Shown here: piece by piece, positions 12,822-36,497 of the stretch | How the letters are laid out: each line of letters starts with the position of its first letter | Numbering within the stretch: position 1 is the first letter of the stretch | Virus record (IMG/VR): IMGVR_UViG_3300029922_000003 | Origin: a virus | Length of the DNA stretch: 64,000 nt | Reading direction: 5' to 3' (one strand) | Notes under the pieces: generated by a model | Database searches by the model: none | What the model was told of the DNA's origin: nothing | The model's input: only the letters and a program-made list of their open reading frames with translations | Made by a program: the position numbers and the translations under genes

Positions 12822-13154
12822 ATGCAAACCAGTTTTCTTCCTAGCGATCCAGATCCTTATATACCCCAAAGAGAAAATGCTGAAAATGCCCTAAAAGTAT
12901 TCAAAGATTCAGTTCAGGCATTTTACCACCCAACCCCATCTGCCACTCTCCATAACATAGATCAGATATCAACAGGGGGACACTCTTCCCTTCAGTTCCT
13001 AGAGGAAGCAGCTAGACACGCCCATACATATATCTCTCACCTAGAGAAGAACTTCCCTCAGTTCAACTATCCAGAAACTAGATCTAATGCTGTTCTTAGG
13101 GCAAAATTCGAGGAAAGCCTCCCGTCTGCCATAGCCCACTTGTTTAAGGCTTAG
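12822..13154 (+). CDS. hypothetical protein, rare plus-strand gene
   Basis: 110 aa fills the gap between 12788 and 13151; AT-rich divergent spacer; 4-nt tail-to-tail overlap with rpoC-C. Confidence 0.5.
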   Translation: MQTSFLPSDPDPYIPQRENAENALKVFKDSVQAFYHPTPSATLHNIDQISTGGHSSLQFLEEAARHAHTYISHLEKNFPQFNYPETRSNAVLRAKFEESLPSAIAHLFKA

Positions 13155-15511
13155 TACCCTACTGTACCTTTGGGTGGCTTTCCAAACTCTTTCCCGTACG
13201 CGAGGGCAGGGATTGGGTTTGTCCCGTGGATGTCTGAGTAGACATCGCCACTGATGACGTTCTTCTTGAGATTCTTCTGCACATAGGACGTACCCATCTG
13301 GGACATCCAATCCTTGTCGTGGGATGGGTTTTCCATCAGTCGAACCATGTGAGGCTCAAAGGCTGGCTTGTGATGGCTAACTAGAACCTGATCCTCACCC
13401 ATGTCTCCAAGATTCTTGGCAACACTAGGAGTAATCCTTGTACCGATGCTGTAGTGCATCACAGGAGCCTCTAGATAGTGATTGAGTGCTTTGGTTGGGT
13501 GCATGACAACAGAATCCCTGTGGGGCTTGTAGTCCTTGCTGAAGGCACTGTACTCAACTGTCTCATCGGGCAGATAGGAGTTTGTCTCGTCAGAGTCGTT
13601 GATCCTGACGTGATCTACAATGCCACGAACCAACACCTCAGCATTCCTTCTGAGCATAGGAATTCCACTCTCGCTGAAAGTGTCTTGTACCTGCTTTAAG
13701 AGATTTAAACGTCCCGCTCCGATCCCCTTCAGTCGAACAACATCAGATGGATTAATTGTACCGGTAGAAATTCTGTCCCCAGCCTCTAACTTATCACCAT
13801 GCTTTACCAGAACCTGGTGGTCTGGAGATACATAGTGCTTGTGCCCACCAATAGATACATTGAACCCACCCTGTGGCATCGTTTCGATCTTGTCAACCTG
13901 TCCATCGTGTTCCGACAGAGAGGCTTTGTCTGGGAAAGTGTCTGGGACTTGAAACAAAGCATTGATAGCCTTGAATCCTGTAGCTTTGGACGAGTTGGCA
14001 ACGCCTGCTGAATTAGAAACAACAAGTCCATTTGCAAGAACAAATAGGTGATCTGGGTGACCCACTTCTATATCAAATGTAGGTACACTACCCATCTCCT
14101 CAATGCCAACGCGCCTGAGCTTTCTGCAATCTACCACACAATCAAATGGTTCATCTCTCAATCCGACAGAAGTAAATCCCATTGGTAATACTCCATAAAA
14201 CTTATTGGTCTTAGTACCAATAGGCAAAACTTGATTTGTCCAATTTAGGTCATCCCCAGCACACATACTTTTGTACCAACGAGATAGAATCTTGTGGTCA
14301 GCCGTACAAACAACACTTGTCCTTCCGAGATTGTTTATGCTGAACGTGTACCGCTGGCACACTCTATTCCCATTATCAAAAACATTTAGCACCTCAGATG
14401 GGAATGTATTGCCATTAATATCAGATCCAAGGACAAAATCCCCAGTCCGAACGTCTTGTATTTCTTTTGTTGTCCAATCTGCCATCCTAACCAATGTTCC
14501 TTTTGATAAACAGTGCTTTTTAGATAGTTGCATTTGGCTTAAAGGCTCCGATGCAGAAGATCCAGCAGACAGCCCAACTGCTTCTCCAAGGGCAGGGAAC
14601 CCACCTCTCTCTCTTGTCCCAGCACACTTTGCGCATATTCCATTAGGTGACTCACAGGTCAAGGTAGATCTTACAACAATTCTATCCTTACCCGATTTTT
14701 TTATGTCACCAATAATCTTTGAAGTTAGTAAGGTACCAGCCTTATGCCCAGACGTATCTTTGGCTAGTACTGACCCTATGTTATCACCGTCATCTATATC
14801 TACTGGAATCCCAGTCTTGGTGCCGCAATCATGCTGCGTCACTATAAGATCTAACATTGAAGAATTGAGTTGTTTACTCAAAAATCCTGAATGCATTGTT
14901 GAGAATTTCGTTGATATTAGGCCAGCACGAGTTCCATATGACGCAGCAAAGTATTCAGCAGGGTTCAATCCCTCTGTGTAGGAATTCTTAATACCAATAG
15001 GTACTGGCTTGTTGTTTTGATCAACCACCAAGAAATCGGATCCAATATTACTATTGAGCTGGGCTTTATTACCACGAGCACCTGATGCAACCATCCTAGC
15101 AAGGTTTGATCCCTTTGCCATAGATGCATCAAAGATCATCCCTGGCATCTTGTTGGAGTAGTGATCGTAGAGCTTTACGAGGGCTTGCTCTCTTTTGTCC
15201 TGATCCAGACCTTTGTCTCCAAAGATACCACGCTCCTTCTGGGACACCTCATCCATCAACTTGTCTTTGTCGATGGGGGATGCAAGGTCGTTCATAGAGA
15301 ACGAGCTGCCAGTCTCAACCGCACCCTTTGACCCAAGGCGCAAGAGCTTGAAAGAAATGTCCCGATACTTATCAGGATCCTGCTCAGCTACTTGCTGAAG
15401 GATATCTTTGACCTCTTTGCTCCCGATGGGCTGATCGGGGGGTAGATCAGCCCTATACTTCTCGGGAACAATAGAGTCAAAAATTAGTCGTGCAACAGTA
15501 GTCGAGGCCAT
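13151..15511 (-). CDS. rpoC: DNA-directed RNA polymerase beta' subunit, C-terminal part, with mini-intein
   Basis: TTVARLIF, SGARG, SYTEGL..AEYF..SYGTR.GL..T (bridge helix), DCGT, C-x6-C-x2-C Zn site, GEAVG...SEP..Q (trigger loop). Confidence 0.95.
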   Translation of the reverse strand: MASTTVARLIFDSIVPEKYRADLPPDQPIGSKEVKDILQQVAEQDPDKYRDISFKLLRLGSKGAVETGSSFSMNDLASPIDKDKLMDEVSQKERGIFGDKGLDQDKREQALVKLYDHYSNKMPGMIFDASMAKGSNLARMVASGARGNKAQLNSNIGSDFLVVDQNNKPVPIGIKNSYTEGLNPAEYFAASYGTRAGLISTKFSTMHSGFLSKQLNSSMLDLIVTQHDCGTKTGIPVDIDDGDNIGSVLAKDTSGHKAGTLLTSKIIGDIKKSGKDRIVVRSTLTCESPNGICAKCAGTRERGGFPALGEAVGLSAGSSASEPLSQMQLSKKHCLSKGTLVRMADWTTKEIQDVRTGDFVLGSDINGNTFPSEVLNVFDNGNRVCQRYTFSINNLGRTSVVCTADHKILSRWYKSMCAGDDLNWTNQVLPIGTKTNKFYGVLPMGFTSVGLRDEPFDCVVDCRKLRRVGIEEMGSVPTFDIEVGHPDHLFVLANGLVVSNSAGVANSSKATGFKAINALFQVPDTFPDKASLSEHDGQVDKIETMPQGGFNVSIGGHKHYVSPDHQVLVKHGDKLEAGDRISTGTINPSDVVRLKGIGAGRLNLLKQVQDTFSESGIPMLRRNAEVLVRGIVDHVRINDSDETNSYLPDETVEYSAFSKDYKPHRDSVVMHPTKALNHYLEAPVMHYSIGTRITPSVAKNLGDMGEDQVLVSHHKPAFEPHMVRLMENPSHDKDWMSQMGTSYVQKNLKKNVISGDVYSDIHGTNPIPALAYGKEFGKPPKGTVGY
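14012..14512 (-). mobile_element. mini-intein (167 aa, no endonuclease)
   Basis: CLSKGTLV start, CTADH block B, TFDIEV..PDHLF..NGLVVSN end, +1 Ser; exteins SKKH|SAGVA correspond to bacterial RTFH|TGG. Confidence 0.92.
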
Positions 15512-15542
15512 CGTCTAATGTTGCACTAATAACAATCAAAAA

Positions 15543-16049
15543 TCAAGAGATGAACTTAGCATCGCCTTTCTTGATCATACTTACTGTGAGCGTGGAGGTC
15601 TTCCCGTTGTCCCAGTGGACTTCACCACTGTCCTGTAACGTACCCTCGATACAGCGCCATCTGGAATAAACACGGCATCCTACCTTATGGGGGAAAACAT
15701 CAACAACCTCAGACACATCATCAATGGGATCAGATTGCTGAGTAAATAGCTCAACCTCTGGTTCCTCCTCTGACTCTGCCCAATCTGGGCTAATGACAAC
15801 ATCTCCAGATATTGCGGGATTCTCTTTGTAAAAGGTCTTTCTAACAACCCTAGCGGTTCTTTCATCCCAAATTGGGAATGTTTTTGTTAGGATATCCCCG
15901 CTCTTGATTGCATAAGAAAGTATCTCAGATACCTTATTGCAGGGGCACTGCAATTCACTTGCTACAACCTCTTGAGAGTCCCACCCCTCTGGTGCAGTAA
16001 ATTGCTTGGAGGACTGGCTCTCGTATATTTTAACCCATTTCTTTGTCAT
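15543..16049 (-). CDS. hypothetical protein with possible winged-HTH N-terminus
   Basis: WDSQEVVASELQCPCNKVSEILSYAIKSG. Confidence 0.45.
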   Translation of the reverse strand: MTKKWVKIYESQSSKQFTAPEGWDSQEVVASELQCPCNKVSEILSYAIKSGDILTKTFPIWDERTARVVRKTFYKENPAISGDVVISPDWAESEEEPEVELFTQQSDPIDDVSEVVDVFPHKVGCRVYSRWRCIEGTLQDSGEVHWDNGKTSTLTVSMIKKGDAKFIS

Positions 16050-16070
16050 GTGTGTGTATTGTGTTTGTGT

Positions 16071-17087
16071 TTACTGTTCCTCTCTGTTCTTCAATAGAAG
16101 ACCAGCGAAGGATTCGCCATTGTTGATCGTGACATTCATCATTTGAAAGTTCCCAGTAGATCTGGAAATAACTCGTACTAGATACCCGTGTGTCCAGGTG
16201 GTCGGATTGGTGTTTGCGTAGTGGGGCTGACGTTTGCACAAGCACCCAGGATTCCATGCGGCGATAAGCCCAACATTGGGCAAAAACTTTGGCTTGAATG
16301 TAGCCCTGTGTGAATCGAAGAATACAATATTCCCTGCAGCCTTGGAAAGGGCAACCTCAGCGGCGTCAGTAGCATTGCTGATTTTGTGAACAAAAGACAC
16401 CTTATCAAACTTAACCCAACCAGGTGTAATACAGTCTCCGTGAGTCATACCTTGCCGATAATACTGGATACCCCTTTCCTTAAGACCCAGGACATGCTCT
16501 GCACAAAATGTGTTGCGTAGAAGCTCTACGTCTTTATGATGGGCTAGCTTTTGATTAACGGCCCAGCGCTCTACACGCCACTCATGATTACCCTCAATAT
16601 AGTGGATATCTTCACACGAAGAGTGTTTTTGGATTTGATCCAACAATATATTGGTTACCTTTACGTCGTCCTCGTATGAGTCCTCAGTCTCAGCGAGATA
16701 CCCGAGCGTATGATGTTCTGCAAGAAATCCCGAGCAGTCTAGAAGGTCACCGCCGATAATAATTCTATCCGGCCTGATCGTTTTTAGATCTCCTAGTAGT
16801 GCCGAAAAAGCCAGTGGGTCATGTTTGTTGCCGTGAACATCCGAGAAGATTACCTCGACTATATCACCCTTGCTAGCCAAAGTCTTTTTGGGTCTTGGAG
16901 CGACCACCACACTTTCGCTCGAAGATCGAGCAGACTTTAGGGCTTTTGCTGTTTGTTCGTGAGCTTTTCGCTCCGCTTGTAAAGCCAACTTAAGGGCTTT
17001 GATTTCATTGCTGTGCTCAGCTTCTGAACTTCTGTGGGCGATCTGGCCCCAATTAGAACTGACAGGTTTTTTGTCTATGTTGCTCAT
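16071..17087 (-). CDS. calcineurin-like metallophosphoesterase
   Basis: SDVHG, GGDLLD, EGNHE, VH and FDSHR motifs; coiled-coil N-terminus. Confidence 0.85.
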   Translation of the reverse strand: MSNIDKKPVSSNWGQIAHRSSEAEHSNEIKALKLALQAERKAHEQTAKALKSARSSSESVVVAPRPKKTLASKGDIVEVIFSDVHGNKHDPLAFSALLGDLKTIRPDRIIIGGDLLDCSGFLAEHHTLGYLAETEDSYEDDVKVTNILLDQIQKHSSCEDIHYIEGNHEWRVERWAVNQKLAHHKDVELLRNTFCAEHVLGLKERGIQYYRQGMTHGDCITPGWVKFDKVSFVHKISNATDAAEVALSKAAGNIVFFDSHRATFKPKFLPNVGLIAAWNPGCLCKRQPHYANTNPTTWTHGYLVRVISRSTGNFQMMNVTINNGESFAGLLLKNREEQ

Positions 17088-17139
17088 ATGAAGTTCAATT
17101 CTTACGCTGCCAGAATCGATTGTGCAAGTACTTTTTGCG

Positions 17140-17370
17140 TCAATCCTTAATTTTTAAGGCAAAGCCCATATTGGCAGCGAACGAAGAGAAGTCATCTTGC
17201 TCACTTTTTGAGACAATCCACACAGGATGTCCTGGGACCATTATTACAAGCGCCACAAGATTACCATCGGTGTCCCGTAGCTCCAGACTAGTTACCTCCC
17301 TGGAGTCGAGGAGTGGTTCGGACAATGGTCCATTTCTGGCAATAACCCTCAATGAATTGTCTGTTGCCAT
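17140..17370 (-). CDS. hypothetical protein
   Basis: 76 aa, TAATG-coupled to the upstream gene. Confidence 0.55.
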   Translation of the reverse strand: MATDNSLRVIARNGPLSEPLLDSREVTSLELRDTDGNLVALVIMVPGHPVWIVSKSEQDDFSSFAANMGFALKIKD

Positions 17371-17924
17371 TACCCCTGTGGCGGCTGCTGAGAAGGATCT
17401 GGAGCTGTCTGTCCGGCAGCGGCAGGATCTTGGCCCTGACTAGGATCTTGCGGAGCTTGCTGAGAGGGATCTGGGGGTGGCTGCTGTTGTGCACTTGGGT
17501 CGCCACCAGGAGATGGAGCACCACCGCCGCCCATAGCCTGCTGCACTAGCTGTTCCAGTTTGTTGATTCGCTCTGTAACACTCAGCTTCTTTTCTTTCTT
17601 CTCTCCCCCACCCTCACCACCTTCTGCTGGGGCAGATGCTGCAGCCTGCTGCTGAGCAAGTTGGATCTGCTGGAGCATTTGAGCTAATTGCTGCAATCCC
17701 TGATCTATGCTCTGGAACCCTTGATTTAGCATCTGAGAAATTTCTGGAAACCCAATTACTGGCTGCTCGTCCGAGCCTGGAGGTGGAGGAGGAGGCTGGG
17801 GGATCTGTCCAGATTGCTGGGCTGTGGATACAGCTACTTGAGTGGCGGGAGAAGCAACGAATGCTTTCTTGCTTAGGTTTCCCATCACTTCAGCGAGGAG
17901 GGCTTTGTTAAAGGATTCTTTCAT
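17370..17924 (-). CDS. Gln/Pro-rich coiled-coil protein
   Basis: 184 aa; SKKAF motif; QQPPPDPSQ-type repeats. Confidence 0.55.
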   Translation of the reverse strand: MKESFNKALLAEVMGNLSKKAFVASPATQVAVSTAQQSGQIPQPPPPPPGSDEQPVIGFPEISQMLNQGFQSIDQGLQQLAQMLQQIQLAQQQAAASAPAEGGEGGGEKKEKKLSVTERINKLEQLVQQAMGGGGAPSPGGDPSAQQQPPPDPSQQAPQDPSQGQDPAAAGQTAPDPSQQPPQG

Positions 17925-17933
17925 GAGGATCTA

Positions 17934-18557
17934 TTATTCTGAGGTATTAAACAGTAAACGGCAAGACAAGAACTCACCTGGCTCAGTAGTTCCTACTGAA
18001 GACAAGATTAGTGCCCAAGAAGTGTTGGGTGTCATTGTTATCGGCTGAAAAAAGATTGAACTTACAGAAAGGGAGTTTTGTGTTAGACGGAAGCTCGTAG
18101 ACTGAACCTGTGGGATCCCACTAACAATCTGGACAAGATACACAACAATATCTGCGCCAGTTGATGGAGTAAACACACTAGCCTGAGCCCCATAACAAGA
18201 GAGAGTAGTCCCGCTTGGAACCTGAAAGTACCCAAATTGATTTCCAGTAGATAGTGCTGCTGGATATTGGAACTCAGCCCAGGACTGAGTCGTACCACCA
18301 GATGTTTGGGTAGGTATGCCAATCAGAGATGAAATAGGCTTCCACACAATGCTGTTAATACCATCCCATGTTGGTACCCAACCAGCGCCAACACCAGAGG
18401 GTGGCTGAGCAGCCATCTGCCCCCACGTATTCCCACCATCTGTACTAAACTGTGTAGAAAGCAACCCGGACACTGGGTCTCTAAAAAACCTAGAGATGTA
18501 ATTGGGAGTCAGAGCGTTTGGTACAAACTGCTGATCTCCTAAAATTGGTGCACCCAT
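17934..18557 (-). CDS. beta-rich protein, probably virion-associated
   Basis: 207 aa; VPTWDG..IVWKP motif typical of fibre/decoration proteins. Confidence 0.45.
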   Translation of the reverse strand: MGAPILGDQQFVPNALTPNYISRFFRDPVSGLLSTQFSTDGGNTWGQMAAQPPSGVGAGWVPTWDGINSIVWKPISSLIGIPTQTSGGTTQSWAEFQYPAALSTGNQFGYFQVPSGTTLSCYGAQASVFTPSTGADIVVYLVQIVSGIPQVQSTSFRLTQNSLSVSSIFFQPITMTPNTSWALILSSVGTTEPGEFLSCRLLFNTSE

Positions 18558-18559
18558 AT

Positions 18560-19180
18560 TTACCAGTGAAGTAGTCGACTAATCAGACCTGGCTTCTTCT
18601 CTGGAGCAGGAGGAGCCTCCTCGACCACAATAGGTACCTGTGGGTCCGTGTCGGCTGGATCGTCGTTGTGATTCTTGTTGTGTCGTACGCTTGTGCTAAC
18701 TCTGACAGCGTGACCACTACCAATTCTCTTGGCAGCAGAACTGATGTTCATGAGGGCTGGAATAGCAGCAGTGGTTGCCGCAGCACCCCCTCCGACAAGT
18801 AGGTCTCTCTGGAGTGGAGAAAATCCCTTTCCGACTGGATTCTCCTTCATGTACCTGCTGGCATCTCTAGATGTTGCAGCAATGTTAACAGCCATGTCTT
18901 TTAGGGGGGCTCCTGCAATCACCTCAATACCATGCATATTGCCTTTAGATAGCATATGACTACCAGCTCCACCCAATCCAGCATTAAGGGCAAGGTTCAC
19001 TAATCTGCCAGTATCGAAGTTTTTGTAATTACCATTGTTCTGTACAGCATCCAGGGCTCCAGCAGTACCAACTGCTCCAATAGCAGCAGGAGCCGCTTTA
19101 CCTAAATGATCCAAGATGCTCTTTATAATCTCTGGAGAAGCAGCTTTCTTGTCAAACAAAATGGTTTTGGGTGTGTCCAT
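18560..19180 (-). CDS. glycine-zipper protein with KAA leader
   Basis: Start revised to ATG 19180; MDTPKTILFDKKAAS. Confidence 0.55.
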   Translation of the reverse strand: MDTPKTILFDKKAASPEIIKSILDHLGKAAPAAIGAVGTAGALDAVQNNGNYKNFDTGRLVNLALNAGLGGAGSHMLSKGNMHGIEVIAGAPLKDMAVNIAATSRDASRYMKENPVGKGFSPLQRDLLVGGGAAATTAAIPALMNISSAAKRIGSGHAVRVSTSVRHNKNHNDDPADTDPQVPIVVEEAPPAPEKKPGLISRLLHW

Positions 19181-19193
19181 ATCTCTCTGAATA

Positions 19194-22100
19194 TTACCCA
19201 ATATCAACTTGACTGTCGATATTTAAGTCCCCTCTTCTATAGGCAGCAATAACATCTTCGGCGCTCTTGAACTTAGTCTTGGGTTTCTTATGATCCACAG
19301 CAGTAGTGTTGTACAACCCGAGGACGAACTCCTGAGATGGTGTATAGTGGGCATCTCTTCCTTTAATGGAGAGAAGGTTCTGAGATGGCATGAGCCTGTC
19401 TTTAATCTCTTTCACTGCGTCATCAGATACAGGGACGTGTACATTCATGGTGTTAGATAGAATAACTCCATCAGCGGCCATGAAGGTCTCATATCCTGGA
19501 ACCGTTAGGTCGTATCCATCTTCTAACACTCCAGTCTTTTCTACAGAGTCGACGGGGGACCAATTGATAGATTTGTTCTCTAGGAACCTCTCAGACCATT
19601 CCAGGAATTCAGGAGTGTCCACGTAGCATTGAGGGCGCTCAGTTTCGGCCAGGAATTTGATAATGCGATCAGCAGTGGACTCTGGCAACTTACCAGTCTT
19701 GATTGGCCTGTCCAGTCCGCTATACACATTCTTCACCAATTTGTAGTTGGGGGTTCCAGCTGGAGCAACCCGAACGATTCCAGCCCTAATCTGCTGAGCG
19801 GACTTCATATCCAGCTTGCCAGAATCACGGCACTTATTGGCTACCTCAAGAGCGATTTCTATGATTGCTCCGTCGCGACGATAGGTCTCCCTAATCTGAT
19901 CAATTGCCCTGTAGGCGGAATTCCTAGAGACAGCTCCTCTGGCAATTCCTCCCCAAATATTTCTGTAAACGGCCTTCTTATCAAGAGTCTCTTCGAGAGC
20001 AGCCCCACCAATCTTTTTAAGGTCAGAGGTAATCTGTGGGCTACCAAGTTGCCTCGAAAACTCCTTCGCAAGACTATGCGGTATAAATACTGTATCGTAC
20101 TTACCAAGCACAGGGGAGTCATCTCTGACAGGCGTGGTCAAAAATGCCTCTTTCTTCCAGGGGCACTCAAGATTCACAAAAATATTGTGTCTCTTACAGT
20201 CAACAGAGGAAAATGCCAGTATCCACGAATCATTTCCTGCGGTAGTGGTTTTGGACCAGGTGATTGTAGAATTAATCCCAAGAGTAGATGCAAGAAATTT
20301 AACATCGCGAACAAGCCTGAGTGACGTGCTAGAAAAAGCACATAGTAGCTGTGGCTTTTCCTTTGCGTGCGACACCGAGCAGGATCCATCAGTATCGACC
20401 AGTCCACAAAGAAGTCCCTCTCGGAACTCCCGTGGAGCTTGATACATAAACCCAGATAGGTGCTTGTTGCCAGAACCAGCGGTATTTTCGTCCCCCTCGC
20501 CACCCAAGTGAGTAGAAAGAAATTCTGCAAACAACTCGCTGTGCTTGAAGTTAAAAGTGTGCTTGACGGTATCTCCGTATCTGGATGGGTTGTTTGCTTT
20601 GAGCGTCTCTATCGAATAATGATAAAGAGGCCCAGACTTTAAAAACAAGTCTGTCAATATTTTCTTTATAGATAAGGCATTATACCCCTTTAGATCTGCC
20701 ATATTAATATTTCTAGAACCAAACATATCTGTTCGCTTGTGGTAATATTCATAATCTTTTTTGTCCCACCACCCATCACCACATAGGGCACCAAGCAAAT
20801 ACCCTAATTCCCTAGTGAGTGGGAGTTTCTTGAAGATACAATCCTCTCGATCTGTTATTGTGATCTCAGAAATTTCTGGCAACTGGCTCACAGCAGCTCC
20901 AGCGTGGGGGGAATATGGTACACAAATCTTACGGTTTAGCGCTTCAGTTGGAGTGCAGCGAATAAGGCCGTCTTCTGGTCTTGATGGATCCATTCCATAA
21001 ACAGCGCGAGGGTCGTCGTCTGTAATGATCTGCCTACCAGCCAGCAAATTTACAATCTCTATTTTCCTTTGGTAATGCTTGCTATAAAACGCAACTTGCG
21101 CCCATACAGGCTTGTTTGTCTTTTCGTCGAGTGCTAAGACCATTATATCCTCTGGGACAGAAAAGAAATCTATTGGACCATTCTTACCGTTCTCGTTGCG
21201 ATTCGTAAACTCTCCGCGAGGAAAGTCCTCTAGGTCAACAACTGATACTTCATGAGTGGTGGGATTGTAATGTGGTAGTGTGATATCCTTGAACATGTCT
21301 TCACTACCGCACAATAGTGATGGATGTGTCAAATGATTTTTACTATTTGTGCATTTTTTTTGCAAACTCCTTAAAATAAGCACTTTACCAACCTGTTCGT
21401 CGCCGTCAAAGTCCGCAGTGAAGGGCTTTACAACTAATGGACTGATCCTAATTGAATCGCCAGTCACAATCTGTGGCTCTGCTCCCATTATGTTGAACCG
21501 GTGCAAAGATGGAGCTCGACTATACATGACCGGCCTAGCCTTCATCTCCTCCAACAAAAACCTCTTTGCATAATCGGTCTTTCTCTCCACATTCAGAGCT
21601 GCCTGACTAGATGGCATTCCGTGCTTTACCAAGCGCCTCATGACAAACGGAGAATACATCTTCCACGCCATCTTTTCTGGGACCCCGATCTGATCCATAT
21701 CTAGCTCATCGCTCGGGATAATTGCCCCCCTCCCAACAGTCCCCACTGTATGACCAATAACCTTCCCCAGGAGAGATCCCGTCTTGGGTCCTCCACTCCC
21801 CGCTAGCTGGCGAATAAACCCTTTAACTCCCTTCTGCACAAGCTTGGGATGAAGCGGGTCACCAAGCCCCATAACAGCAGCAAGCGAGTCGTACACAGCA
21901 AGTCTCTCATTGCCAGCCTCTTGATCACCAAAATCTTGTTTTGATTTTTCGTGAAGATCCCTGGCTGTCATTAGGTCTTTGTATAGATAATTGGAGTCAG
22001 CACTCAGCATCATCCTCCCAGCCATAGAAATAGGGCGATATGCGGCGGGTAAAACCGGAACCTTAGTCATAAAGAAATCTTCCTTCCCAATACCCTGTTT

Positions 22101-26631: not shown

Positions 26632-26655
26632 AAAGGGGGGTATTTTATACCCCCC
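26630..26655 (-). terminator. intrinsic terminator
   Basis: GGGGGGTAT/ATACCCCCC stem plus T5. Confidence 0.75.
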
Positions 26656-27422: not shown

Positions 27423-27446
27423 AATTCCTCCTTTTGTTTGTTGTTT

Positions 27447-27785: not shown

Positions 27786-27805
27786 TTTTACCTCCTTGTT
27801 TGTTG

Positions 27806-28372: not shown

Positions 28373-28449
28373 ATGCCTCCTCTTGTTGTTTGTTGTTAAC
28401 CTCCAATAGCTGCCCACCCCTATAGGGATGAGCAGACTTGATTGTTACT

Positions 28450-28926: not shown

Positions 28927-28956
28927 TTTCGTTTTCCTTTGTTTGTTGTTTTTGTG

Positions 28957-29256
28957 TTAGACGAGATCCTGCTGTTGTGGCAGGTCGTCTGCGTGTAGTC
29001 CTCTCGATATGGCATCTCGCAAGATATCTCCAATGGAAACATCCTCCTGAATGGATTGTGAAATCAGCTTTCTGAGTTGCACAATAGTTAAAGCATCAAG
29101 GTTAATCTCAACCGGCACCCAAGGCACCAGAGTTATTGACCCATCCTGATTAGCTCGAATGGTGAACTTATCCCCACATTCGATTCCCAATTCTGCCACT
29201 TCTTCATCACTGAACTGGATGAAGTATTCTTCTTTGGACTGCACAACCTTCTTCAT
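28957..29256 (-). CDS. AbrB/SpoVT-like DNA-binding protein
   Basis: Start revised to ATG 29256; YFIQFSDEEVAELGIECGDKFTIRANQDGSITLVP. Confidence 0.6.
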   Translation of the reverse strand: MKKVVQSKEEYFIQFSDEEVAELGIECGDKFTIRANQDGSITLVPWVPVEINLDALTIVQLRKLISQSIQEDVSIGDILRDAISRGLHADDLPQQQDLV

Positions 29257-29287
29257 TTTTGTTTGTTTGCTTGTTTTGGTTTGTTGT

Positions 29288-29659
29288 TTACTGACTGATC
29301 TTTTGATCTGATAACCACTTGATCTGCGCATGATCGTTGACACACTTACTGTACCTATTGACCACCCCGGCTGTAGACAATAGCGCTAGCGCACCAAACA
29401 CCACTGTAAGGATAGCGGCAATCATTACTAAAGTGTCTCTCTGTTGCTGGGATGTCGTGACCCTTTTAACCATGCTTGGCCGCGCATTTTCAATAAGCGA
29501 AATGACACTCCCCACAGCTAGCCATCCAAATAGCATAACCCCAGAGAATGCAAACAACGCTACAATCAGGTCTGTGTAAAACGCGAACTCGAACTGGTTT
29601 ATGTAGAACTGCCTACTGGTCTCATCAAGTGCTGCACTGTATTCGATAATTGGATTCAA
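29288..29659 (-). CDS. two-TM membrane protein
   Basis: TTG start right after the upstream stop, with AGGAGG. Confidence 0.55.
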   Translation of the reverse strand: MNPIIEYSAALDETSRQFYINQFEFAFYTDLIVALFAFSGVMLFGWLAVGSVISLIENARPSMVKRVTTSQQQRDTLVMIAAILTVVFGALALLSTAGVVNRYSKCVNDHAQIKWLSDQKISQ

Positions 29660-30013
29660 TTATTCCTCCTTTTTGATTTTGTATTTGAAGACATTAACTG
29701 TTGAAGTTTTGTCCTCCTGAAGGACATGGACAAGGACCAAAAAGTGTGTTTTGTCTAATGAGTAAACAGGGTTAGTGCTGGAAATAGTGACTTTTGTATC
29801 TTTCTCTTCAGCAGCTTCCGTCATACCATCTACAGCCTCTTTCTGAAAGGCATACACTTCGGGGTACTTGCCCTCGTCAACTTCCTCACCATGTGAGATG
29901 CTGTCGTCATCAAAGAGTAAATCCATGTCAAAGACATTGGGATCTATCACCTTGATAGCTTCTACCATCTTGAGCCTGGTGGGCTCAATTAGTATTTGTC
30001 TTAGTATATCCAT
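29660..30013 (-). CDS. acidic hypothetical protein
   Basis: 117 aa. Confidence 0.6.
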   Translation of the reverse strand: MDILRQILIEPTRLKMVEAIKVIDPNVFDMDLLFDDDSISHGEEVDEGKYPEVYAFQKEAVDGMTEAAEEKDTKVTISSTNPVYSLDKTHFLVLVHVLQEDKTSTVNVFKYKIKKEE

Positions 30014-30026
30014 TCTTGTTGTTAGT

Positions 30027-30101
30027 TGGTGTGCCCGACAGGACTCGAACCTATAACCAGCTCTTTAGAAAAAAGCTGCTCTTCCATTGAGCTACGAGCA
30101 C
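30027..30101 (-). tRNA. tRNA-Arg(UCU)
   Basis: GTGCTCG acceptor, GCTC D-stem, GCTTT-TTTCTAA-AGAGC anticodon arm, TTCGAGT T-loop, encoded ACCA. Confidence 0.9.
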
Positions 30102-30113
30102 ACTAAAAACTAA

Positions 30114-30398
30114 TTAAGCGTCGATATCCGGCGCTTCGTTCTGGCCCTTCCACATTGCTGTGGTTTGGGGTGCAGACTGATCTGAGGCTGGTTGGTGGAG
30201 TGGCTCATCGGAGAAAATTCCGATCACCGCCTCAATAACCTTTTCCTCATCCTTGGTCTGTCCTGCACCACAGACGGCATTGCCAATGGCAGTGACGGTT
30301 GTAGCAAGGGCAAGCCCCTCCTTCGCTCCCATCTGGGACTCGATGAATTCTGCCATTTCCTTGGCGGCATACGCCAAGTCTTCTTTTGATTTAATCAT
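30114..30398 (-). CDS. hypothetical protein
   Basis: 94 aa. Confidence 0.55.
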   Translation of the reverse strand: MIKSKEDLAYAAKEMAEFIESQMGAKEGLALATTVTAIGNAVCGAGQTKDEEKVIEAVIGIFSDEPLHQPASDQSAPQTTAMWKGQNEAPDIDA

Positions 30399-30415
30399 TG
30401 TTGGTGTGTTTGTTG

Positions 30416-30685
30416 TTACTTGGACTGAGCTGGAATTTTTCCCAGATCAGCCAATCGTTTGTTCTCTCGCTCTTCCTCACTAACACTGGCAATAGCCAGC
30501 TTTAGCTTGCTTGTGTCCTCTTCCAAGGACTCCCTTGCTAATATCAAATACCTCGTTGAGTCATTTGGTAAATTCAAGAGGTGTTTTTTGTTCAGCTCGT
30601 TGATGCCAGCTAGTGCAGCCTCGAAATTCTTCAAGTGCCTATGCATCCTCTCGAGCCTCGACTCTTCTTCTTCTGTTGTTGCCAT
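30416..30685 (-). CDS. coiled-coil hypothetical protein
   Basis: Start revised to ATG 30685 with GGAGG. Confidence 0.55.
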   Translation of the reverse strand: MATTEEEESRLERMHRHLKNFEAALAGINELNKKHLLNLPNDSTRYLILARESLEEDTSKLKLAIASVSEEERENKRLADLGKIPAQSK

Positions 30686-30692
30686 TTTCCTC

Positions 30693-30884
30693 CTATAGTG
30701 TGAACTTTGATTTACTGTCGTTATCTGGCCCAAGTAGTTCGTCCATTATTCCCTCTTCTTCGAGGTAACGTATGACGGCCTCCTTGTCCAGCTCGGGTGG
30801 GCACTCTACCTCAATGGTATCAGCAAATTCCAATACCGAGACTACGTGCCCACCCTGATAGATGAAGCGCTTAAGGATCCTCAC
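30693..30884 (-). CDS. hypothetical protein
   Basis: 63 aa. Confidence 0.45.
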   Translation of the reverse strand: MRILKRFIYQGGHVVSVLEFADTIEVECPPELDKEAVIRYLEEEGIMDELLGPDNDSKSKFTL

Positions 30885-31152
30885 CTAGCATTTCTCCTGT
30901 AATTGGATTTATGAATACAGACTTAGGCAGTGGTACCCTCAATAGAGAGTAAACCATCGCCTTGCCTTTGTCGGTGAGATAGAACTTCGTTCCCGTTTTG
31001 TCCCCCGCCATAGCAGCGATAAGATCCTGTCCTATTAGCTGATGCGAGGAATGTTTCCATGCCACCTTTTGGGACTCTGAGGGTTCTTCATTGGAATAGT
31101 ATATATGTAGCAAAAGCTCTATATCAGCTGGGCTCCATCTTCTATCTTTCAT
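30871..31152 (-). CDS. small winged-helix-like protein
   Basis: LLHIY...LIGQDLI......FYLTDKGKAMV pattern. Confidence 0.5.
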   Translation of the reverse strand: MKDRRWSPADIELLLHIYYSNEEPSESQKVAWKHSSHQLIGQDLIAAMAGDKTGTKFYLTDKGKAMVYSLLRVPLPKSVFINPITGEMLGEDP

Positions 31153-31409
31153 GATCCACCTCCTTCTGAGTACTCATCCCCCCGGTCGCAGAAGTAGTTG
31201 TGAGCAGCCTTTAGGTCTCGGACAGTTTTCTCTGTCTCTGCGATATCCTCCTTGTCCAACTTGGTCTTCCCCTTTGCTTTGGATGCATCCTTGATCCACT
31301 CCTCAAGGTCTTCAATCTCTGCCTTTAGCAAAGCTGCAGTCATTGCTGTTGTATCGAAGAAGTCTGCAAACCTCTCTCCAAAACTTTTTCTTCTTTTCTT
31401 TCCACTCAT
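31149..31409 (-). CDS. hypothetical protein
   Basis: 86 aa, SD AAAGGAG, ATGA overlap. Confidence 0.6.
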   Translation of the reverse strand: MSGKKRRKSFGERFADFFDTTAMTAALLKAEIEDLEEWIKDASKAKGKTKLDKEDIAETEKTVRDLKAAHNYFCDRGDEYSEGGGS

Positions 31410-31427
31410 CGTTTTTCTCCTTTGTTG

Positions 31428-31643
31428 TTATACAACGGCATTTGCCGCGTATTTGGGTTCTAGTGGTCTGTACTCCTCTGGAGGAGCTATCTCGCCACAC
31501 TTTTCGCACTTCATCTTTGGAATGACGTGCCTGTGGAAGTGGTGGTCATCATAACCACCGCCTTCCTGCTCGTAACCGCAGTGACATATGTACACTGCTG
31601 TAAAATCACGACGATACTGACTCTTGATGTCTTTTATTTTCAT
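31428..31643 (-). CDS. small Zn-ribbon protein
   Basis: CHCG...CEKCG. Confidence 0.65.
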   Translation of the reverse strand: MKIKDIKSQYRRDFTAVYICHCGYEQEGGGYDDHHFHRHVIPKMKCEKCGEIAPPEEYRPLEPKYAANAVV

Positions 31644-32122
31644 TCTGCTATTTCAAAAGGGTCTACCCCTTCTATGAATTCCGGTGTGTACCGACAATAT
31701 GATATTGGAGGGGTACTGATTAAATAAACAGGAGTTATCTTGTCTACTGCATACCCAAACAAAAACCCAAGCACTTGCTGGGCCATAGCACAGTTCTTTT
31801 CTTCTTTATCTAAATCTGTCGAGAATGGATCAATACGGTAAAAACAGTCTTTGAACAATTCAAACACCCAGTCATGTTTATAGATAATAATATCCATAAG
31901 CCCCATTTCACTATCAGAAAACCAGTTTCCTATTCTAGCCTTTACTGGTACATCTAGACGGAATGAGAGTATAGTCTTAAGCTGCTGCTTGAAGTACTTA
32001 GACTGATACACATGAATTGGGATAATACAGTGTGCCATCGCTTTCGCTCCGCCATCCACAGACATTATCATTGCATTTTGAATTACTGTGATTATTGAAC
32101 TAATTTGATCTCGCTGCTGCAT
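31640..32122 (-). CDS. hypothetical protein
   Basis: 160 aa; LGFLFGY motif. Confidence 0.55.
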   Translation of the reverse strand: MQQRDQISSIITVIQNAMIMSVDGGAKAMAHCIIPIHVYQSKYFKQQLKTILSFRLDVPVKARIGNWFSDSEMGLMDIIIYKHDWVFELFKDCFYRIDPFSTDLDKEEKNCAMAQQVLGFLFGYAVDKITPVYLISTPPISYCRYTPEFIEGVDPFEIAE

Positions 32123-32432
32123 CTTGTTCTTTTAGTTTCTTTGTATGAAAGGAGCTCGATATGTGCCAGTGTGAACAATGCTCACACATGTACACTCTCA
32201 GAGCTGATGTATTTCCTTTCTTTGTTCTTAGTAAGTGATTCTTACTATCATTTGCCCCACCTTCCGATGGATACATTGTTTTTCCCGTAGTTGGGCATTT
32301 CTTCTTCTTCTCGAACTTAGGTCCGAGAGATTCGATCAGCTCAATGGGGACATCTTTGGGTGGTAGTCCAATTTCCTTTAGGATCTTGTCTACTACCCCA
32401 TTTGTTGGGCCGAGGCCCTTGACTCCTTTCAT
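32100..32432 (-). CDS. phage Zn-finger protein
   Basis: CPTTGK..Y...LRVYMCEHCSHWHISS. Confidence 0.7.
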   Translation of the reverse strand: MKGVKGLGPTNGVVDKILKEIGLPPKDVPIELIESLGPKFEKKKKCPTTGKTMYPSEGGANDSKNHLLRTKKGNTSALRVYMCEHCSHWHISSSFHTKKLKEQDAAARSN

Positions 32433-32467
32433 AAATTACTCAATTTTAACCAAATTGATTTTTCTCC

Positions 32468-32517
32468 TGTTGATTGTTAAAAATAACCACAAAGCCCCTC
32501 CATGCGGAGGGGATGTG
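32468..32517. repeat. ~50-bp direct repeat with terminator-like hairpin, copy 1
   Basis: TGTTGATTGTTAAAAATAACCACAA-GCCCCTCCATGCGGAGGGG. Confidence 0.9.
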
Positions 32518-32569
32518 ATGATTGACTATTACACAAGAATCTATTCTGTGTGCCTACCTTTAATTTTTA

Positions 32570-33325
32570 TCAGGACTCCTTTTTTACACCACATTCCACG
32601 ACAAATAGTCCCTCTGATATTAAGAATTGTTTCAGCTGCATAGCAAATAGATAGGCAGTATGGGGGGCAAACCTCAAATCAACAGCAAAGCTCTCACGAG
32701 ATGGAGAATAGATCCTGTAAACCAGCTTCCCCTCCAAAACATTAAGATTAATAGCCAAGTGCCTCATTACCAGACGCCCCCCGACACCAGCAATAATAAA
32801 ATCAACCACCCTCGACCAATGCTTGCCAGGCGCTGAAGCTATCCATCGCTCCCCAGTACCCGAATAAAACTTAATCATAGCAAAAAGCCCTACTTCTTTT
32901 TTATATCCACTACGATAAAACCTAAAAGCACGAGTAGTATAAAGATTTTCTGCATAAAAACTCTTACGACTTTTTTGTAACTCCTTTAGCTGAATTTTAA
33001 AATTTGCAATTCCAGTTGGGGAATTTATGTAAAACTTTTTGTTGTAAAATTGTTTTATAAAACTAATGCCCTCCCTTAAATATCTTAGTGCAGTACGGTG
33101 GGGGAACCCGCAATGCCTATAAACCTCTGAGATAGGAATTGGCGGCATTTCTCCAAGTCCATACACCATAGACAAAACCGTGGCTTGATTCTTAGATAAC
33201 TTACATAAGCACATCTTTAAAAAATCCAGCTCAAGTTTGTCCTCTAGATCTTGCCACGGAGGTGGACAGTTGTCCGCAACACCATGCGCCTTTTCTATTT
33301 GTACCACGGTAAAGTTCATTTTCAT
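32570..33325 (-). CDS. sigma70 region-4-like HTH domain fused to unknown domain
   Basis: LCKLSKNQATVLSMVYGLGEMPPIPISEVYRHCGF...ALRYLREGISFIK; no sigma region 2; AT-rich. Confidence 0.6.
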   Translation of the reverse strand: MKMNFTVVQIEKAHGVADNCPPPWQDLEDKLELDFLKMCLCKLSKNQATVLSMVYGLGEMPPIPISEVYRHCGFPHRTALRYLREGISFIKQFYNKKFYINSPTGIANFKIQLKELQKSRKSFYAENLYTTRAFRFYRSGYKKEVGLFAMIKFYSGTGERWIASAPGKHWSRVVDFIIAGVGGRLVMRHLAINLNVLEGKLVYRIYSPSRESFAVDLRFAPHTAYLFAMQLKQFLISEGLFVVECGVKKES

Positions 33326-33334
33326 TTTCCTTTT

Positions 33335-33384
33335 TGTTGATTGTTAAAAATAACCACAATGCCCCTCCATACGGAGGGGCTGTG
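33335..33384. repeat. ~50-bp direct repeat, copy 2
   Basis: TGTTGATTGTTAAAAATAACCACAA-GCCCCTCCATACGGAGGGG. Confidence 0.9.
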
Positions 33385-33397
33385 TGTATTTAGTTAA

Positions 33398-34018
33398 TTA
33401 CTCCTCCTTGAGACTGACACCCATCTCATTAAGCATCCTTACCAACTGCTTTGGTGTTAACCTAGTTGATGCGTAGTGGATGATGACAGACTTGCCATCG
33501 ATACTGTAGGGAGAGGGATTCCCTGGAGTTGCATTGCGAATGGCCTTTGCCTTTTGGCTTTCGATCCAAGCTCTTTGGGCAGGGATGTCACGGACCTTAT
33601 TCCTATCAAATACCTGGCGGCACTGATCGAACGTAAGGTTCTCTGCGTCAATCTGCAGGATAGATACTTCATCGTTTTTGCCGACGATTAATACCTCAAG
33701 TGGACCACTCAGCAATCGGTCCTGATCACTCTTCGCAATGCGAGTCATGTATGAACAGGCTGGGTAGTTCACCGTCAATAGGATTGGGTTGAGCTGCTTG
33801 CGTCCAATCCTCTCGAGCTGGATGATTACATCCTTACCTCCACCAGACTGTTCAGCAACTTCCTGTGCGCTCATCCCAAGATTGTCCATCATATGGACAC
33901 AGACGTTTCCTGCCTCTGCAAGATTTCTAACAGCTTGGGACAGTAATTGCCTAAACTGTGTGATGGCTTTTTGCCGAGCCTCATCCATTGTTTCTGCTAC
34001 TTCTACTACTTCATTCAT
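33398..34018 (-). CDS. hypothetical protein
   Basis: 206 aa. Confidence 0.65.
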   Translation of the reverse strand: MNEVVEVAETMDEARQKAITQFRQLLSQAVRNLAEAGNVCVHMMDNLGMSAQEVAEQSGGGKDVIIQLERIGRKQLNPILLTVNYPACSYMTRIAKSDQDRLLSGPLEVLIVGKNDEVSILQIDAENLTFDQCRQVFDRNKVRDIPAQRAWIESQKAKAIRNATPGNPSPYSIDGKSVIIHYASTRLTPKQLVRMLNEMGVSLKEE

Positions 34019-34514
34019 TTCGGTTGTTTGGTTGTGCCATTTCTGGCGGGTTGTTTTCTGACACTAATGCGCTGGACTGAAAGAATACTTTGACGCATAG
34101 CTCTGAGTGTTTTTTAGCTCTAGCCTTGGCATTTAAAGCTATTTGATGCTCCCGAGCCCTCTCAGGGTTTTGGGCTCTCCATTTGATTGAGTGCATTTTT
34201 TGCATTTCCCGAAACCTCTCAGGATTTTCAGCCTTAAGCTTGTCGCAGTATCTCCTTCGTCTCTCTCGACGCTCCTTCCGAAGCTTCTCAGGATTTTCAG
34301 CTTTCTTTTTTTTCCACCACCTTCTATATGCCTCCCTTCTCCTCTCTAAGAACTTCTCAGGATCTCTAGCTTTACTTTTTTCGTAATGTACTCGAGCCAT
34401 CTGGATCATCTCCCGAAATTTCTCGGGATTTTCAGACTTAAGTTTGTAGTAGCGTTTCCTGGAGTTCTCACTTTTCCTCTCCTTACGCTCTTCCTCAGTA
34501 AAAACTTTTCTCAT
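34011..34514 (-). CDS. basic ENPEK-repeat protein, paralog B
   Basis: Start revised to ATG 34514 (ATGA overlap, SD GGAGG); ENPE[KR] units. Confidence 0.7.
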   Translation of the reverse strand: MRKVFTEEERKERKSENSRKRYYKLKSENPEKFREMIQMARVHYEKSKARDPEKFLERRREAYRRWWKKKKAENPEKLRKERRERRRRYCDKLKAENPERFREMQKMHSIKWRAQNPERAREHQIALNAKARAKKHSELCVKVFFQSSALVSENNPPEMAQPNNRNE

Positions 34515-34930
34515 GTTACCTCCGTTGGTTGAATGTTTCCTGACACTAATAGAGATGATTGGAAGAATACTTTGACACAAAGAGCTGAGTGTTTTTTAGC
34601 TCTAGCCTTGGCATTAAAAGCTATTTGATGCTCACGGGACTTCTCAGGGTTTTGGGCTCTCCATTTGACTGAGTTTATTTTTAGCATTTCCCGAAACCTC
34701 TCAGGATTTTCAGCCCTAAGCTTGTCGGAGTATCTCCTTTGGGACTCTCGAGCTTGCTTCAAAAGCTTCTCAGGGTTTTTAGCCTTAAGCCTGTAGTAGG
34801 TCTCTCTCCCTATCTCCCTTCTCCTCTCTAAAAATTTCTCGGGATTTTCAGCCACCCCTTTGTGGTAGTATCTCCTATAACTCTCTCTTCTCCTCTCCTT
34901 ACGTTCTTCCTCAGTAAGAACTTTTTTCAT
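34511..34930 (-). CDS. basic ENPEK-repeat protein, paralog A
   Basis: Tandem duplicate of 34011-34514 with an identical 23-bp leader. Confidence 0.7.
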   Translation of the reverse strand: MKKVLTEEERKERRRESYRRYYHKGVAENPEKFLERRREIGRETYYRLKAKNPEKLLKQARESQRRYSDKLRAENPERFREMLKINSVKWRAQNPEKSREHQIAFNAKARAKKHSALCVKVFFQSSLLVSGNIQPTEVT

Positions 34931-35066
34931 GTTACCTCCGTTGGTTGAATTTTACGGATGGATAAAGAATCCATTCCATTACATTATGGCGAAAACAAGC
35001 CCTCTTTTGACCCACCCATAAATGCACACTAGCGCACAGCTAGTATCTAAAGAAAACACTAAAGGA

Positions 35067-36497
35067 CTATACCTTTAGGAGCGACGCTGCACCAACAGGA
35101 GCAGGGATAGCATTGTGCTCAGGGATCTTATTGCCCCTAGGGAATGCAACAACCGACTGGCTCATCTGGATAGCATTGATGTACTCAGGCTTTCCAGTGC
35201 GCTTGTTCATTACTGGGAAGTAGATGTTTCCATCACTTCCTTTTTTAGCTACTGAGGAGTAGCGCTGATCGACACCAATGTTCTTGGACTCAGAGGATCT
35301 AATAGGATCCAGCACCATTGCTTGAGATGGGGACACTGCCCTACTGGACATCGGCACCGCATCCATTGAAGTAATAGCTCCCTCACCTGTCTGCACAACT
35401 CTCTTCTGGTAGTCGTAGATCTCCATAGGATTAATCCCAGAGATGTGGTTGCTCAAGCTATTGCCGACAATTAATCCATCTAGTTGCGGAGTAAAGTATC
35501 CAGGACGAATTCCCTTCAATGTCCTATTGTAAGTAGAGCGATGCAGAAGTGTCCTTGCTAGTTGGCCGGCATCCTTCTTAACCCTTTCTTCAAAGAGATC
35601 CTCTGGGCCCATGAAGTTCTTGTTGGCCATGCTATCACGGTCATCCTCCTCCTCAAGCCCCTTATTGATGTTGAGCAGCTTCTGGCTAGCCCTAAGAATC
35701 AACCTAGGACTAAGGTTCTTATCAGCGACGCCAAGCGTCCTTTGAGTAACCTCAGGATCAACCTCACCTCTGCCAAGCTCTTCGAGGAGCTCTTTCTTTT
35801 TTTGCTTGTCGTCTGCGCCAGGCGTTGCCTTTCGGCCCATGAGTTTATCATAGAATTTGCCAAATGACTTGTCGTCATCATGGCTCTTATTGGCGTCCAA
35901 AAGTTGTGGACCCCAATACTTCATAATCTCCCCATCATCCATACCCATTCCCTTAAGGACTGGATATAGCTTAATGCGGCTTTTACCGATCATGACTCTA
36001 TAAACACCAGTATCTGGCTCCATAAAAAGTCGCATTCCTTGGCCCGTGCCGCTAATTGTATTTATGTGACTTTCTATTTCGCCACTGTCTTTGCGCCTAG
36101 CGTAGATACCTGGCTTCAGGCGTTGTTGTCCAGCCACAAGGCTGTACTCACTACCCCCGTTGATAAAAGTCCCCCTGTGGGTCATCCAGGGCACCCTAGA
36201 AACCACCCCCTTAAATTCATCAAGCTTCTGACCGGTTAGCTTGTCGTGCAAAGTAATTGTCCCACTAATGGGTACAGATAGCTTACCTCCTGTTAGGAGT
36301 GCTTTCTTTTCGTCGTGCACACCATATGGCTTCTTCTGGTCGTAGTGCAGATCCTTGGCACTAATAACAACCTTTTCATTCTCCATGGGGAACTTAGCCT
36401 GATAGGCACCAAGAGTCCTGTCCAGAATGTCCTGCCTCAGCCCCTCTGGATCGTCAAACCCACGGAGGGTAACTCCTTTGGGGGATGGGATGTCCAC
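35067..36497 (-). CDS. rpoB: RNA polymerase beta subunit, N-terminal part
   Basis: PWMTHRGTFINGGSE...QQRLKPG, DDRDSMANK, NPMEIYDYQKR, DPIRSSESKNIGV. Confidence 0.92.
   Translation of the reverse strand: MDIPSPKGVTLRGFDDPEGLRQDILDRTLGAYQAKFPMENEKVVISAKDLHYDQKKPYGVHDEKKALLTGGKLSVPISGTITLHDKLTGQKLDEFKGVVSRVPWMTHRGTFINGGSEYSLVAGQQRLKPGIYARRKDSGEIESHINTISGTGQGMRLFMEPDTGVYRVMIGKSRIKLYPVLKGMGMDDGEIMKYWGPQLLDANKSHDDDKSFGKFYDKLMGRKATPGADDKQKKKELLEELGRGEVDPEVTQRTLGVADKNLSPRLILRASQKLLNINKGLEEEDDRDSMANKNFMGPEDLFEERVKKDAGQLARTLLHRSTYNRTLKGIRPGYFTPQLDGLIVGNSLSNHISGINPMEIYDYQKRVVQTGEGAITSMDAVPMSSRAVSPSQAMVLDPIRSSESKNIGVDQRYSSVAKKGSDGNIYFPVMNKRTGKPEYINAIQMSQSVVAFPRGNKIPEHNAIPAPVGAASLLKV

Follow-up and report, generated by a model that had tools for sequence, protein, structure and literature searches.

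A bacterial-type RNA polymerase (RNAP) encoded in three pieces in the viral record IMGVR_UViG_3300029922_000003 raises the question as to whether so unusual a layout is genuine, whether it was invented independently in this phage, and what kind of enzyme it would form. The stretch analysed here (the window, 64,000 nucleotides; GC content, ~45%) corresponds, in reverse complement, to bases 1-64000 of that 103,653-bp record (estimated completeness, 54%). The genome of this uncultured phage is approximately 190 kb in size, the longest contig encoding exactly the same proteins being 186,740 bp.

Pfam, NCBIfam and BLASTP analyses resolve the polymerase into three proteins, namely β-N, a β-C/β'-N fusion and β'-C, all of which are encoded on the minus strand of the window. 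NCBIfam rpoB and rpoC models, as well as chains of bacterial β and β' in the Protein Data Bank (PDB), match these proteins collinearly. The domain, BLASTP and PDB matches thereby agree with an earlier sequence-only reading of this DNA, which had recognised three collinear pieces with clean breaks. β-N (35067-36497; 476 aa, with a GTG start) contains Pfam Rpb2_2 (3.9e-10) and covers the protrusion, lobe and fork of β, to about residue 623 of Escherichia coli β: its residues 238-451 match positions 350-572 of the NCBIfam rpoB model, and its PDB match is to E. coli β 422-623. The fusion gene (19194-24206; 1670 aa) carries Rpb2_6 (residues 119-474) followed by Rpb1_1/Rpb1_2 (684-938) in one frame; as previously read, β runs into β' without a stop, and Pfam also detects a LAGLIDADG domain and an intein C-terminal block. 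Its β-C part (22527-24206; residues 1-560) accounts for the Rpb2_6 match (1.6e-33) and for positions 527-1093 of the 1096 in the NCBIfam rpoB model, while the β'-N part (21399-22526; residues 561-936) contains Rpb1_1/Rpb1_2 and corresponds to RpoC 160-494. The C-extein (19194-19451; 85 aa, TMNVHVP...NIDSQVDIG, then a stop) corresponds to E. coli β' ~464-550, with PDB matches to Thermus β' 745-827 and to the cyanobacterial gamma subunit 472-556. Finally, β'-C (13151-15511; 786 aa) contains Rpb1_5, interrupted by a Hint domain, and matches the rpoC model TIGR02386 (9.2e-67, model positions 549-1068).

At the level of sequence, the window encodes the core of a bacterial-type, two-barrel multisubunit RNAP with all of its catalytic motifs intact. 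The barrel lysines K343 and K351 are kept in DKISSRAAAKG (fusion residues 342-352), and the catalytic ADFDGD is found at fusion residues 931-936, where an intein is the only interruption. Both catalytic barrels reside in one chain, the fusion, which bears out the earlier proposal that most active-site halves are held in a single polypeptide. The β'-N part further retains the clamp helices and the lid region, while β'-C holds the bridge helix, the trigger loop with its His, and the C-terminal regions. The β' N-terminal zinc-binding Cys cluster is indeed missing, as had been read, there being not a single Cys in any of the fusion exteins; the second zinc site is retained in β'-C (C229, C286, C293 and C296).

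The break points were mapped by BLASTP against Salmonella RpoB and RpoC and are given in E. coli numbering (RpoB is annotated with 38 additional residues at its N-terminus). Fusion residues 19-556 correspond to β 626-1338 and residues 636-963 to β' 160-494, while residues 1-333 of β'-C correspond to β' 569-936, with RpoC 1186-1283 matched in addition. The β break is located at about β 623/626 and the β' break at about β' 550/569; a profile of 27 β-N proteins stops at E. coli β 620-623. At the β break no residues are lost and a short tail is gained on each side: β-N ends with ...PEYINAIQMSQSVVAFP plus a 19-residue tail, and the fusion picks up at ...KEVDYEIMSPS. The β' break comes with the loss of a variable hairpin, the fusion ending with ...AAYRRGDLNIDSQVDIG, 85 residues after DFDGD, and β'-C starting with MASTTVARLIF (the TTVARLIF motif lies at ~E. 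coli β' 569). The β-N tail (35067-35126, minus strand) follows the conserved pattern P-x-P-(V/M)-(G/S)-A-A-(S/D)-(L/M)-L, with PAPVGAASLLKV in the window and PPPVGAASMLTI in the related locus L008; the 25-residue N-terminal extension of the fusion (24132-24206, minus strand) reads MDLFEQMFPGLLKEA... in the window and MKKDLFSELFPDFVQKNA in the related locus L006. Docking and capsid targeting are possible roles for these new tails. Split-intein trans-splicing of β-N to β-C was considered and rejected, as the tails comprise just 19 and 25 residues and contain no Hint motif, and no intein is present at the β-N/β-C junction in the 40 fused representatives for which this junction was listed.

Relatives of the polymerase indicate where each of these features arose. 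Among phage-collection records, β-N matched only Salmonella phage Arash (OQ632216; RNAP gp206 and gp216, sigma gp10/gp196) and the Vibrio phages D69, D181 and D148. In all four phages a single open reading frame (ORF) of ~1525 aa spans β-N, β-C and β'-N (gp206, 1525 aa, in Arash; D69_0261 in D69), and a β'-C of ~606 aa (gp216 in Arash) comes a few genes later. β-N aligns with gp206 residues 12-472 at 29% identity (BLASTP) and the β break falls between gp206 residues 472 and 478, while the end of the fusion aligns to the end of gp206 and residue 5 of β'-C to residue 7 of gp216. The window enzyme and the Arash/D69-type RNAP have in common the β C-terminus fused to the β' N-terminus and a separate β'-C, broken before TTxGR; they also share the absence of the β' zinc cluster, an orthologous sigma factor of 234-236 aa and a genome of ~180-190 kb, and no alpha or omega gene was found for either. 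They differ in that β is undivided in Arash and D69 (one chain of ~1525 aa; ~1450-1530 aa for the Arash type) and the RNAP genes contain no inteins, at an identity of ~28-33%, whereas in the window β-N has a gene of its own at a distance of 10.9 kb.

The best 150 matches, representing metagenomic clusters, were taken from an exhaustive search against 1.84 billion representatives (all with E <= 1e-189). β-N is part of the same chain in 138 of these and absent from it in 12; β'-C is part of it in none. In a phylogeny inferred for the shared region under LG+gamma (158 tips and 903 columns, with Salmonella RpoB+RpoC as the root), the window and almost all split forms make up one clade nested among fused forms, whose 15-tip core has a support of 1.0. 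Away from this group of split forms only one further split was seen, and it coincides with a scaffold gap; one member of the split clade, P0061, is re-fused yet retains the β-N tail motif internally. Because the split forms constitute one subclade nested among fused forms, the β break is derived, having arisen by a single later fission, while the fusion and the β' break are the ancestral layout of a very large clade of Arash-type phages. The three-chain enzyme is best described as a real and conserved, further-split variant of a large and essentially undescribed phage polymerase family that has cultured members.

The sequence-only reading had proposed an independently evolved architecture. This is only partly right: the β-N break alone is lineage-specific, the fusion and the β' break being ancestral and present in Arash and in D69, D181 and D148, and independence from phiKZ-type or cellular splits is no more than a possibility. 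Split points identical to those of the window are thus already on record in a known clade for the fusion and the β' break, and not for the β break. No published description of the fused or split layout was found in the literature searched; the Arash paper labels gp206 as β and gp216 as β', and nothing more (PMC10585845). A scan of viral contigs with β-N recovered no relatives, the patterns employed being too specific.

Two inteins interrupt the polymerase genes. Intein 2 (14012-14512, minus strand) is a 167-aa mini-intein in the trigger loop (Pfam Hint/Hom_end_hint; TIGR01443 at residues 478-501), inserted directly after the trigger-loop His (...SQMQLSKKH / SAGVA...). It has Cys1 (CLSKGT...), a TADH block B and a VVSN end followed by Ser+1, and it qualifies as a class 1 intein. 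Intein 1 (19452-21398, minus strand; 649 aa) lies directly after DFDGD and includes a LAGLIDADG endonuclease (Pfam LAGLIDADG_3 and Intein_splicing; TIGR01443). It begins with E-Q-V-G-K, has TDDD as its block B and ends with ...GYDLTVPGYETFMAADGVILSN (VILSN), followed by Thr+1, these boundaries being taken from the translation and a family alignment, with a DnaB-intein match to blocks F and G. It falls outside class 1, having no Cys, Ser or Thr at position 1 and no block-B TxxH; in the family alignment its variable first residue occupies the Cys1/Ser1 column. A start at Cys970, after a degenerate duplicate of the C-extein, was rejected, as no DNA similarity was found and as the family alignment places the beginning of the conserved first strand right after DFDGD.

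The occupancy of the DFDGD site was surveyed in the window and the 150 best representatives (n=151; homologues P0061-P0210). No insertion follows the Mg triad in 87 sequences, all of which read DxDGD, and a homologous intein is present exactly at this site in 57, divided over three classes. The class to which the window belongs (~24 of the 151) shows DxDGD, a variable residue and mostly Gln next, and ends with SN before T. A second class (22-23 members) shows DxDGN before Cys1 and ends with (Y/W/F)D before T or S, and a third (six members) DxNGD before Ser1, with HN before T at its end. Asn in the Mg triad, encountered in none of the 87 intein-free alleles, replaces the third Asp in the Cys1 class and the second Asp in the Ser1 class; if splicing is canonical, these two classes would leave Asn in the triad. 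Co-conversion of the flanks, deamidation, or a junction chemistry that proceeds via the neighbouring Asp/Asn are ideas that might account for the pattern. Inteins are frequent across the polymerase family (L004 5450-7870; L008 10001-12469; L010 12420-17297; P0088, P0089 and P0184, of 2900-3040 aa), with matches in three or four separate stretches in β-N proteins of 806-822 aa and in fusion chains of up to 3038 aa.

Neither a sigma nor an alpha gene was found within the 64-kb window, in line with the earlier reading, which had noted no alpha subunit or full sigma factor there. Extending the search to the whole 103.6-kb record, as that reading had suggested, revealed a sigma-70-family gene of 236 aa among baseplate-region genes (G000:C1:86127-86837; L013:2127-2837), 22 kb outside the window, and no match to the alpha and omega Pfam domains (PF01000, PF01193 and PF01192), which are likewise unmatched in the complete genomes of Arash and D69 (14 of 14 control genomes were positive). 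The 236-aa protein matches PHROG 351, 'RNA polymerase sigma factor' (4.5e-14), and regions 2-4 of SigA/RpoD; it aligns with Arash gp10 over its full length at 26% identity (2e-17) and is the orthologue of this virion sigma. A six-frame search with Pfam Sigma70_r2 missed this diverged sigma, a negative that represents a failure of sensitivity. A 251-aa ORF (32570-33325) was also considered as a sigma region-4 protein, for which no support was obtained (no Pfam match, and a PHROG match of only 0.042). The record contains a single RNAP set, and in Arash and D69 the polymerase occupies one place per record.

Like the window enzyme, the phiKZ/AR9-type RNAPs are phage-encoded and devoid of alpha and omega, and their β is also broken into N- and C-terminal parts. 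They had been said to be split at other positions, which is true of the β' break as regards the residue and not as regards the region: phiKZ gp55, once the gp56 intron of the phiKZ sequence is bridged to find its end, stops 67 residues after DFDGD, as compared to 85 in the window (18 apart), within the same post-barrel linker. A 2020 review by Sokolova regards this linker as a single site at which both phiKZ-type and cyanobacterial enzymes are split (PMC7598289), and the β' breaks of the window, phiKZ and cyanobacteria all lie in it, after the catalytic barrel and before the bridge helix. In phiKZ-type enzymes, however, β and β' are on separate chains, two sets (virion and non-virion) are encoded, and gp68/gp226 are present and no sigma-70, whereas the window enzyme is plainly bacterial-like, comes as a single set with β and β' fused, and is accompanied by a sigma-70-family gene. 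A PDB profile search with 27 β-N sequences did not reach the phiKZ/AR9 chains, which are too diverged (HMMER). The codons of DFDGD are targeted by mobile elements in both systems, namely a group I intron with an HNH gene in phiKZ gp55 and an intein in the window; the phiKZ intron sits a few codons before the Mg-loop codons that intein 1 occupies. In the phiKZ record (NC_004629; L011 2923-5600), gp55 is annotated with 420 aa, and the DFDGD exon lies beyond the gp56 HNH gene.

The split β' of cyanobacteria and plastids (gamma/RpoC1 and RpoC2) is similarly broken between the catalytic barrel and the bridge helix. It differs in that this break comes after the TTxGR-like motif, ~15-70 aligned residues further towards the C-terminus: the cyanobacterial gamma subunit ends ~154 residues after DFDGD and ~68 residues past the end of the fusion, and RpoC2 starts ~15-20 residues into β'-C, residues 43-54 of which align to RpoC2 30-38. 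The rpoB-rpoC fusions of Helicobacter and Wolbachia (PRK09603 and PRK14844) show the same in-frame join, and the window proteins match both models; these cellular fusions differ, however, in being full-length, in the presence of alpha, omega and the zinc cluster, and in having no further breaks. The β break may lie within a few tens of residues of the archaeal B''/B' split, an approximate placement extrapolated over 140-250 residues (PRK09606 and TIGR03670): β-N would then end close to where the 496-position B'' model does, and the fusion would start near the beginning of the 599-position rpoB_arch model. Archaeal enzymes are otherwise different, the window RNAP being of the bacterial type. 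The mReC phages, Cobetia phage Carin-5 and Rhizobium phage RHph_Y65 are also medium-to-large tailed phages with cellular-like β and β', with an adjoining sigma in Carin-5; in contrast to the window, the Carin-5/RHph_Y65-type phages have separate and undivided β and β' (927-1127 aa). The description of the mReC phages (Weinheimer and Aylward 2020) likewise reports separate β and β', with no mention of a fusion, split or intein (PMC7481178).

The polymerase genes are dispersed, as previously noted. A hypervariable block of ~22 small genes (24207-35066, minus strand; 10,860 bp) parts β-N from the fusion. The distance between the two β halves among relatives ranges from 0 bp, with a TAATG overlap, in L004, through 1 kb in L010 and 5.2 kb in L006, to 10.9 kb in the window, and the gap of L006 (76% identical) contains a homologue of only the last ORF of the window gap, a weak one. 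No Pfam or PHROG families were matched by the gap ORFs. Outside the gap, collinearity with L006 is maintained both upstream of β-N, for the portal gene and four others, and downstream of the fusion. The site of the β break has thus turned into a hypervariable accessory site. The second gap, of 3,682 bp between the fusion and β'-C, contains six genes (15543-19207, minus strand), the first two of which are conserved in L006. One gene between the fusion and β'-C encodes a metallophosphoesterase (16071-17087, minus strand; PHROG 221, 1.5e-20), and D69 too has a metallophosphoesterase near its polymerase genes.

A gene of 344 aa (36497-37531, minus strand) is translationally coupled to β-N, its TAG and the GTG of β-N sharing one base, and homologues lie directly upstream of β-N in L006 and L008. 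Its product, which has no family or atlas match, is a candidate accessory polymerase or virion protein. A portal-protein homologue (40988-42811, minus strand) lies upstream, with tblastn matches to Arash gp204, 'portal protein' (5e-48), and to D69 (1e-61). For 20 neighbouring and large genes, PHROG and Pfam scans produced hardly any matches.

Considering these data together, we think it probable that the window encodes a three-chain, virion-packaged phage RNAP, free of phage alpha and omega and directed by sigma, in which the β fission was added to an ancestral fusion and β' break. β-N supplies the β lobes and the fork, the fusion holds both double-psi barrels, with the pair of barrel lysines and the DFDGD loop that binds Mg, and β'-C supplies the bridge helix, trigger loop and jaw. 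According to this proposal, following excision of the two inteins, the three chains would assemble without phage alpha or omega, the β-β' tether taking over part of the assembly role of the alpha dimer. The 236-aa sigma, whose gene belongs to the baseplate module at a distance of 22 kb, may bind this core and direct the enzyme, and both would travel in the virion and be injected to carry out early transcription. Packaging is proposed because the virion proteome of Arash contains the orthologous proteins and because the portal-then-RNAP gene order is common to the window, Arash and D69. The β fission, for its part, opened a site in which unrelated small genes, amounting to as much as 10.9 kb, have since accumulated.

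Several observations weigh against this proposal or parts of it. Identity to Arash is only 28-32%, and the binding of the chains to one another, their activity and their packaging are predictions. Adding P0086 and P0099 to the split clade (17 tips) lowers its support to a moderate 0.785. The record represents ~54% of the genome, and the remainder might contain alpha, omega or another set of polymerase genes; use of host alpha is possible as well. Furthermore, intein 1 has neither an N-terminal nucleophile nor a block-B His, making normal splicing of the catalytic chain uncertain. It has to be asked, moreover, whether the layout is real at all. The breaks and the fusion could be artefacts of assembly, frameshifting or gene calling, or the genes could be decaying pseudogenes, and the apparent split in the distant relative L005/P0125 does coincide with a run of N in its scaffold; being probably an artefact, this 'adjacent split' was discounted. 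For the window, the evidence contradicts such an explanation, which we regard as extremely improbable. The exact 1670-, 786- and 476-aa proteins were found on 7, 10 and 14 contigs, respectively, in JGI, ENA and Logan assemblies that are independent of each other, so that a sequence error behind the stop after β-N, recovered on 14 contigs, is unlikely, and the assembly error that the sequence-only reading had named as a potential refutation did not materialise. Stand-alone β-N proteins of ~450-500 aa with proper ends occur in 59 clusters, down to ~33% identity, conserved tails have been acquired on both sides of the β break, and the long frames stay open at 45% GC with every catalytic motif intact.

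Genuine as the genes are, the enzyme might still not be a virion polymerase, and could instead be a non-packaged middle or late enzyme, or a hybrid with host alpha (and omega). Packaging in the window phage is indeed argued by analogy with Arash, the bacterial-like β and β' could in principle bind host alpha, and their similarity to bacterial enzymes exceeds that of phiKZ-type enzymes. Against this, the Arash virion contains the orthologues gp206 and gp216 and the orthologous sigma gp10 as some of its most abundant proteins (PMC10585845), and the RNAP genes of the window share the strand of the late genes and lie within the portal/structural region. Nor was an alpha gene found in the complete Arash and D69 genomes, although this has no bearing on the use of host alpha. 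We consider this alternative unlikely on balance. The odd features of intein 1 open a further option, to which we give little credence, namely that the mature enzyme consists of more than three chains, with intein 1 remaining unspliced, either retained or subject to C-terminal Asn cleavage only, and the chain broken after DFDGD. A first residue pair of Glu-Gln and TDDD in place of TxxH, in an intein that yet retains the terminal Asn and Thr+1, speak for it, as does the recurrence of this type in ~24 of the 151 family members. Known RNAP structures suggest, however, that an active site could hardly function with a domain of 649 residues on the buried Mg loop, and the persistence of the intein 1 type across lineages ~40% identical argues that the host gene still works. 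Going beyond the three-chain virion polymerase that we favour, one may speculate, as a distinctly tentative extension, that the enzyme is a self-sufficient, sigma-dependent and alpha-less RNAP in which the tether replaces the alpha platform and thereby permits other cuts, near the archaeal B''/B' site and the cyanobacterial/phiKZ site, and whose catalytic-loop inteins mature by a hitherto undescribed chemistry, either without a nucleophile at residue 1 or with an Asn/Asp swap beside the Mg-binding aspartates.

The three-chain layout indicates that the subunit organisation of cellular-type RNAP is plastic, one fusion and two breaks being combined in one lineage. The fusion and each break have separate precedents in cells or phages, that of the β break by extrapolation only. 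Independently of this, the Mg-loop and trigger-loop inteins raise a separate question of protein-splicing chemistry, and the pattern at DFDGD merits a study of its own. The split subclade offers a dated series in which a gene fission turns into a landing site for accessory genes. Finally, the parent family, which is large, has cultured members and its own sigma, and in which no alpha was found, provides a test, set up by nature, of whether the alpha platform can be dispensed with in favour of a β-β' tether, and is a tractable target for structural and biochemical work.

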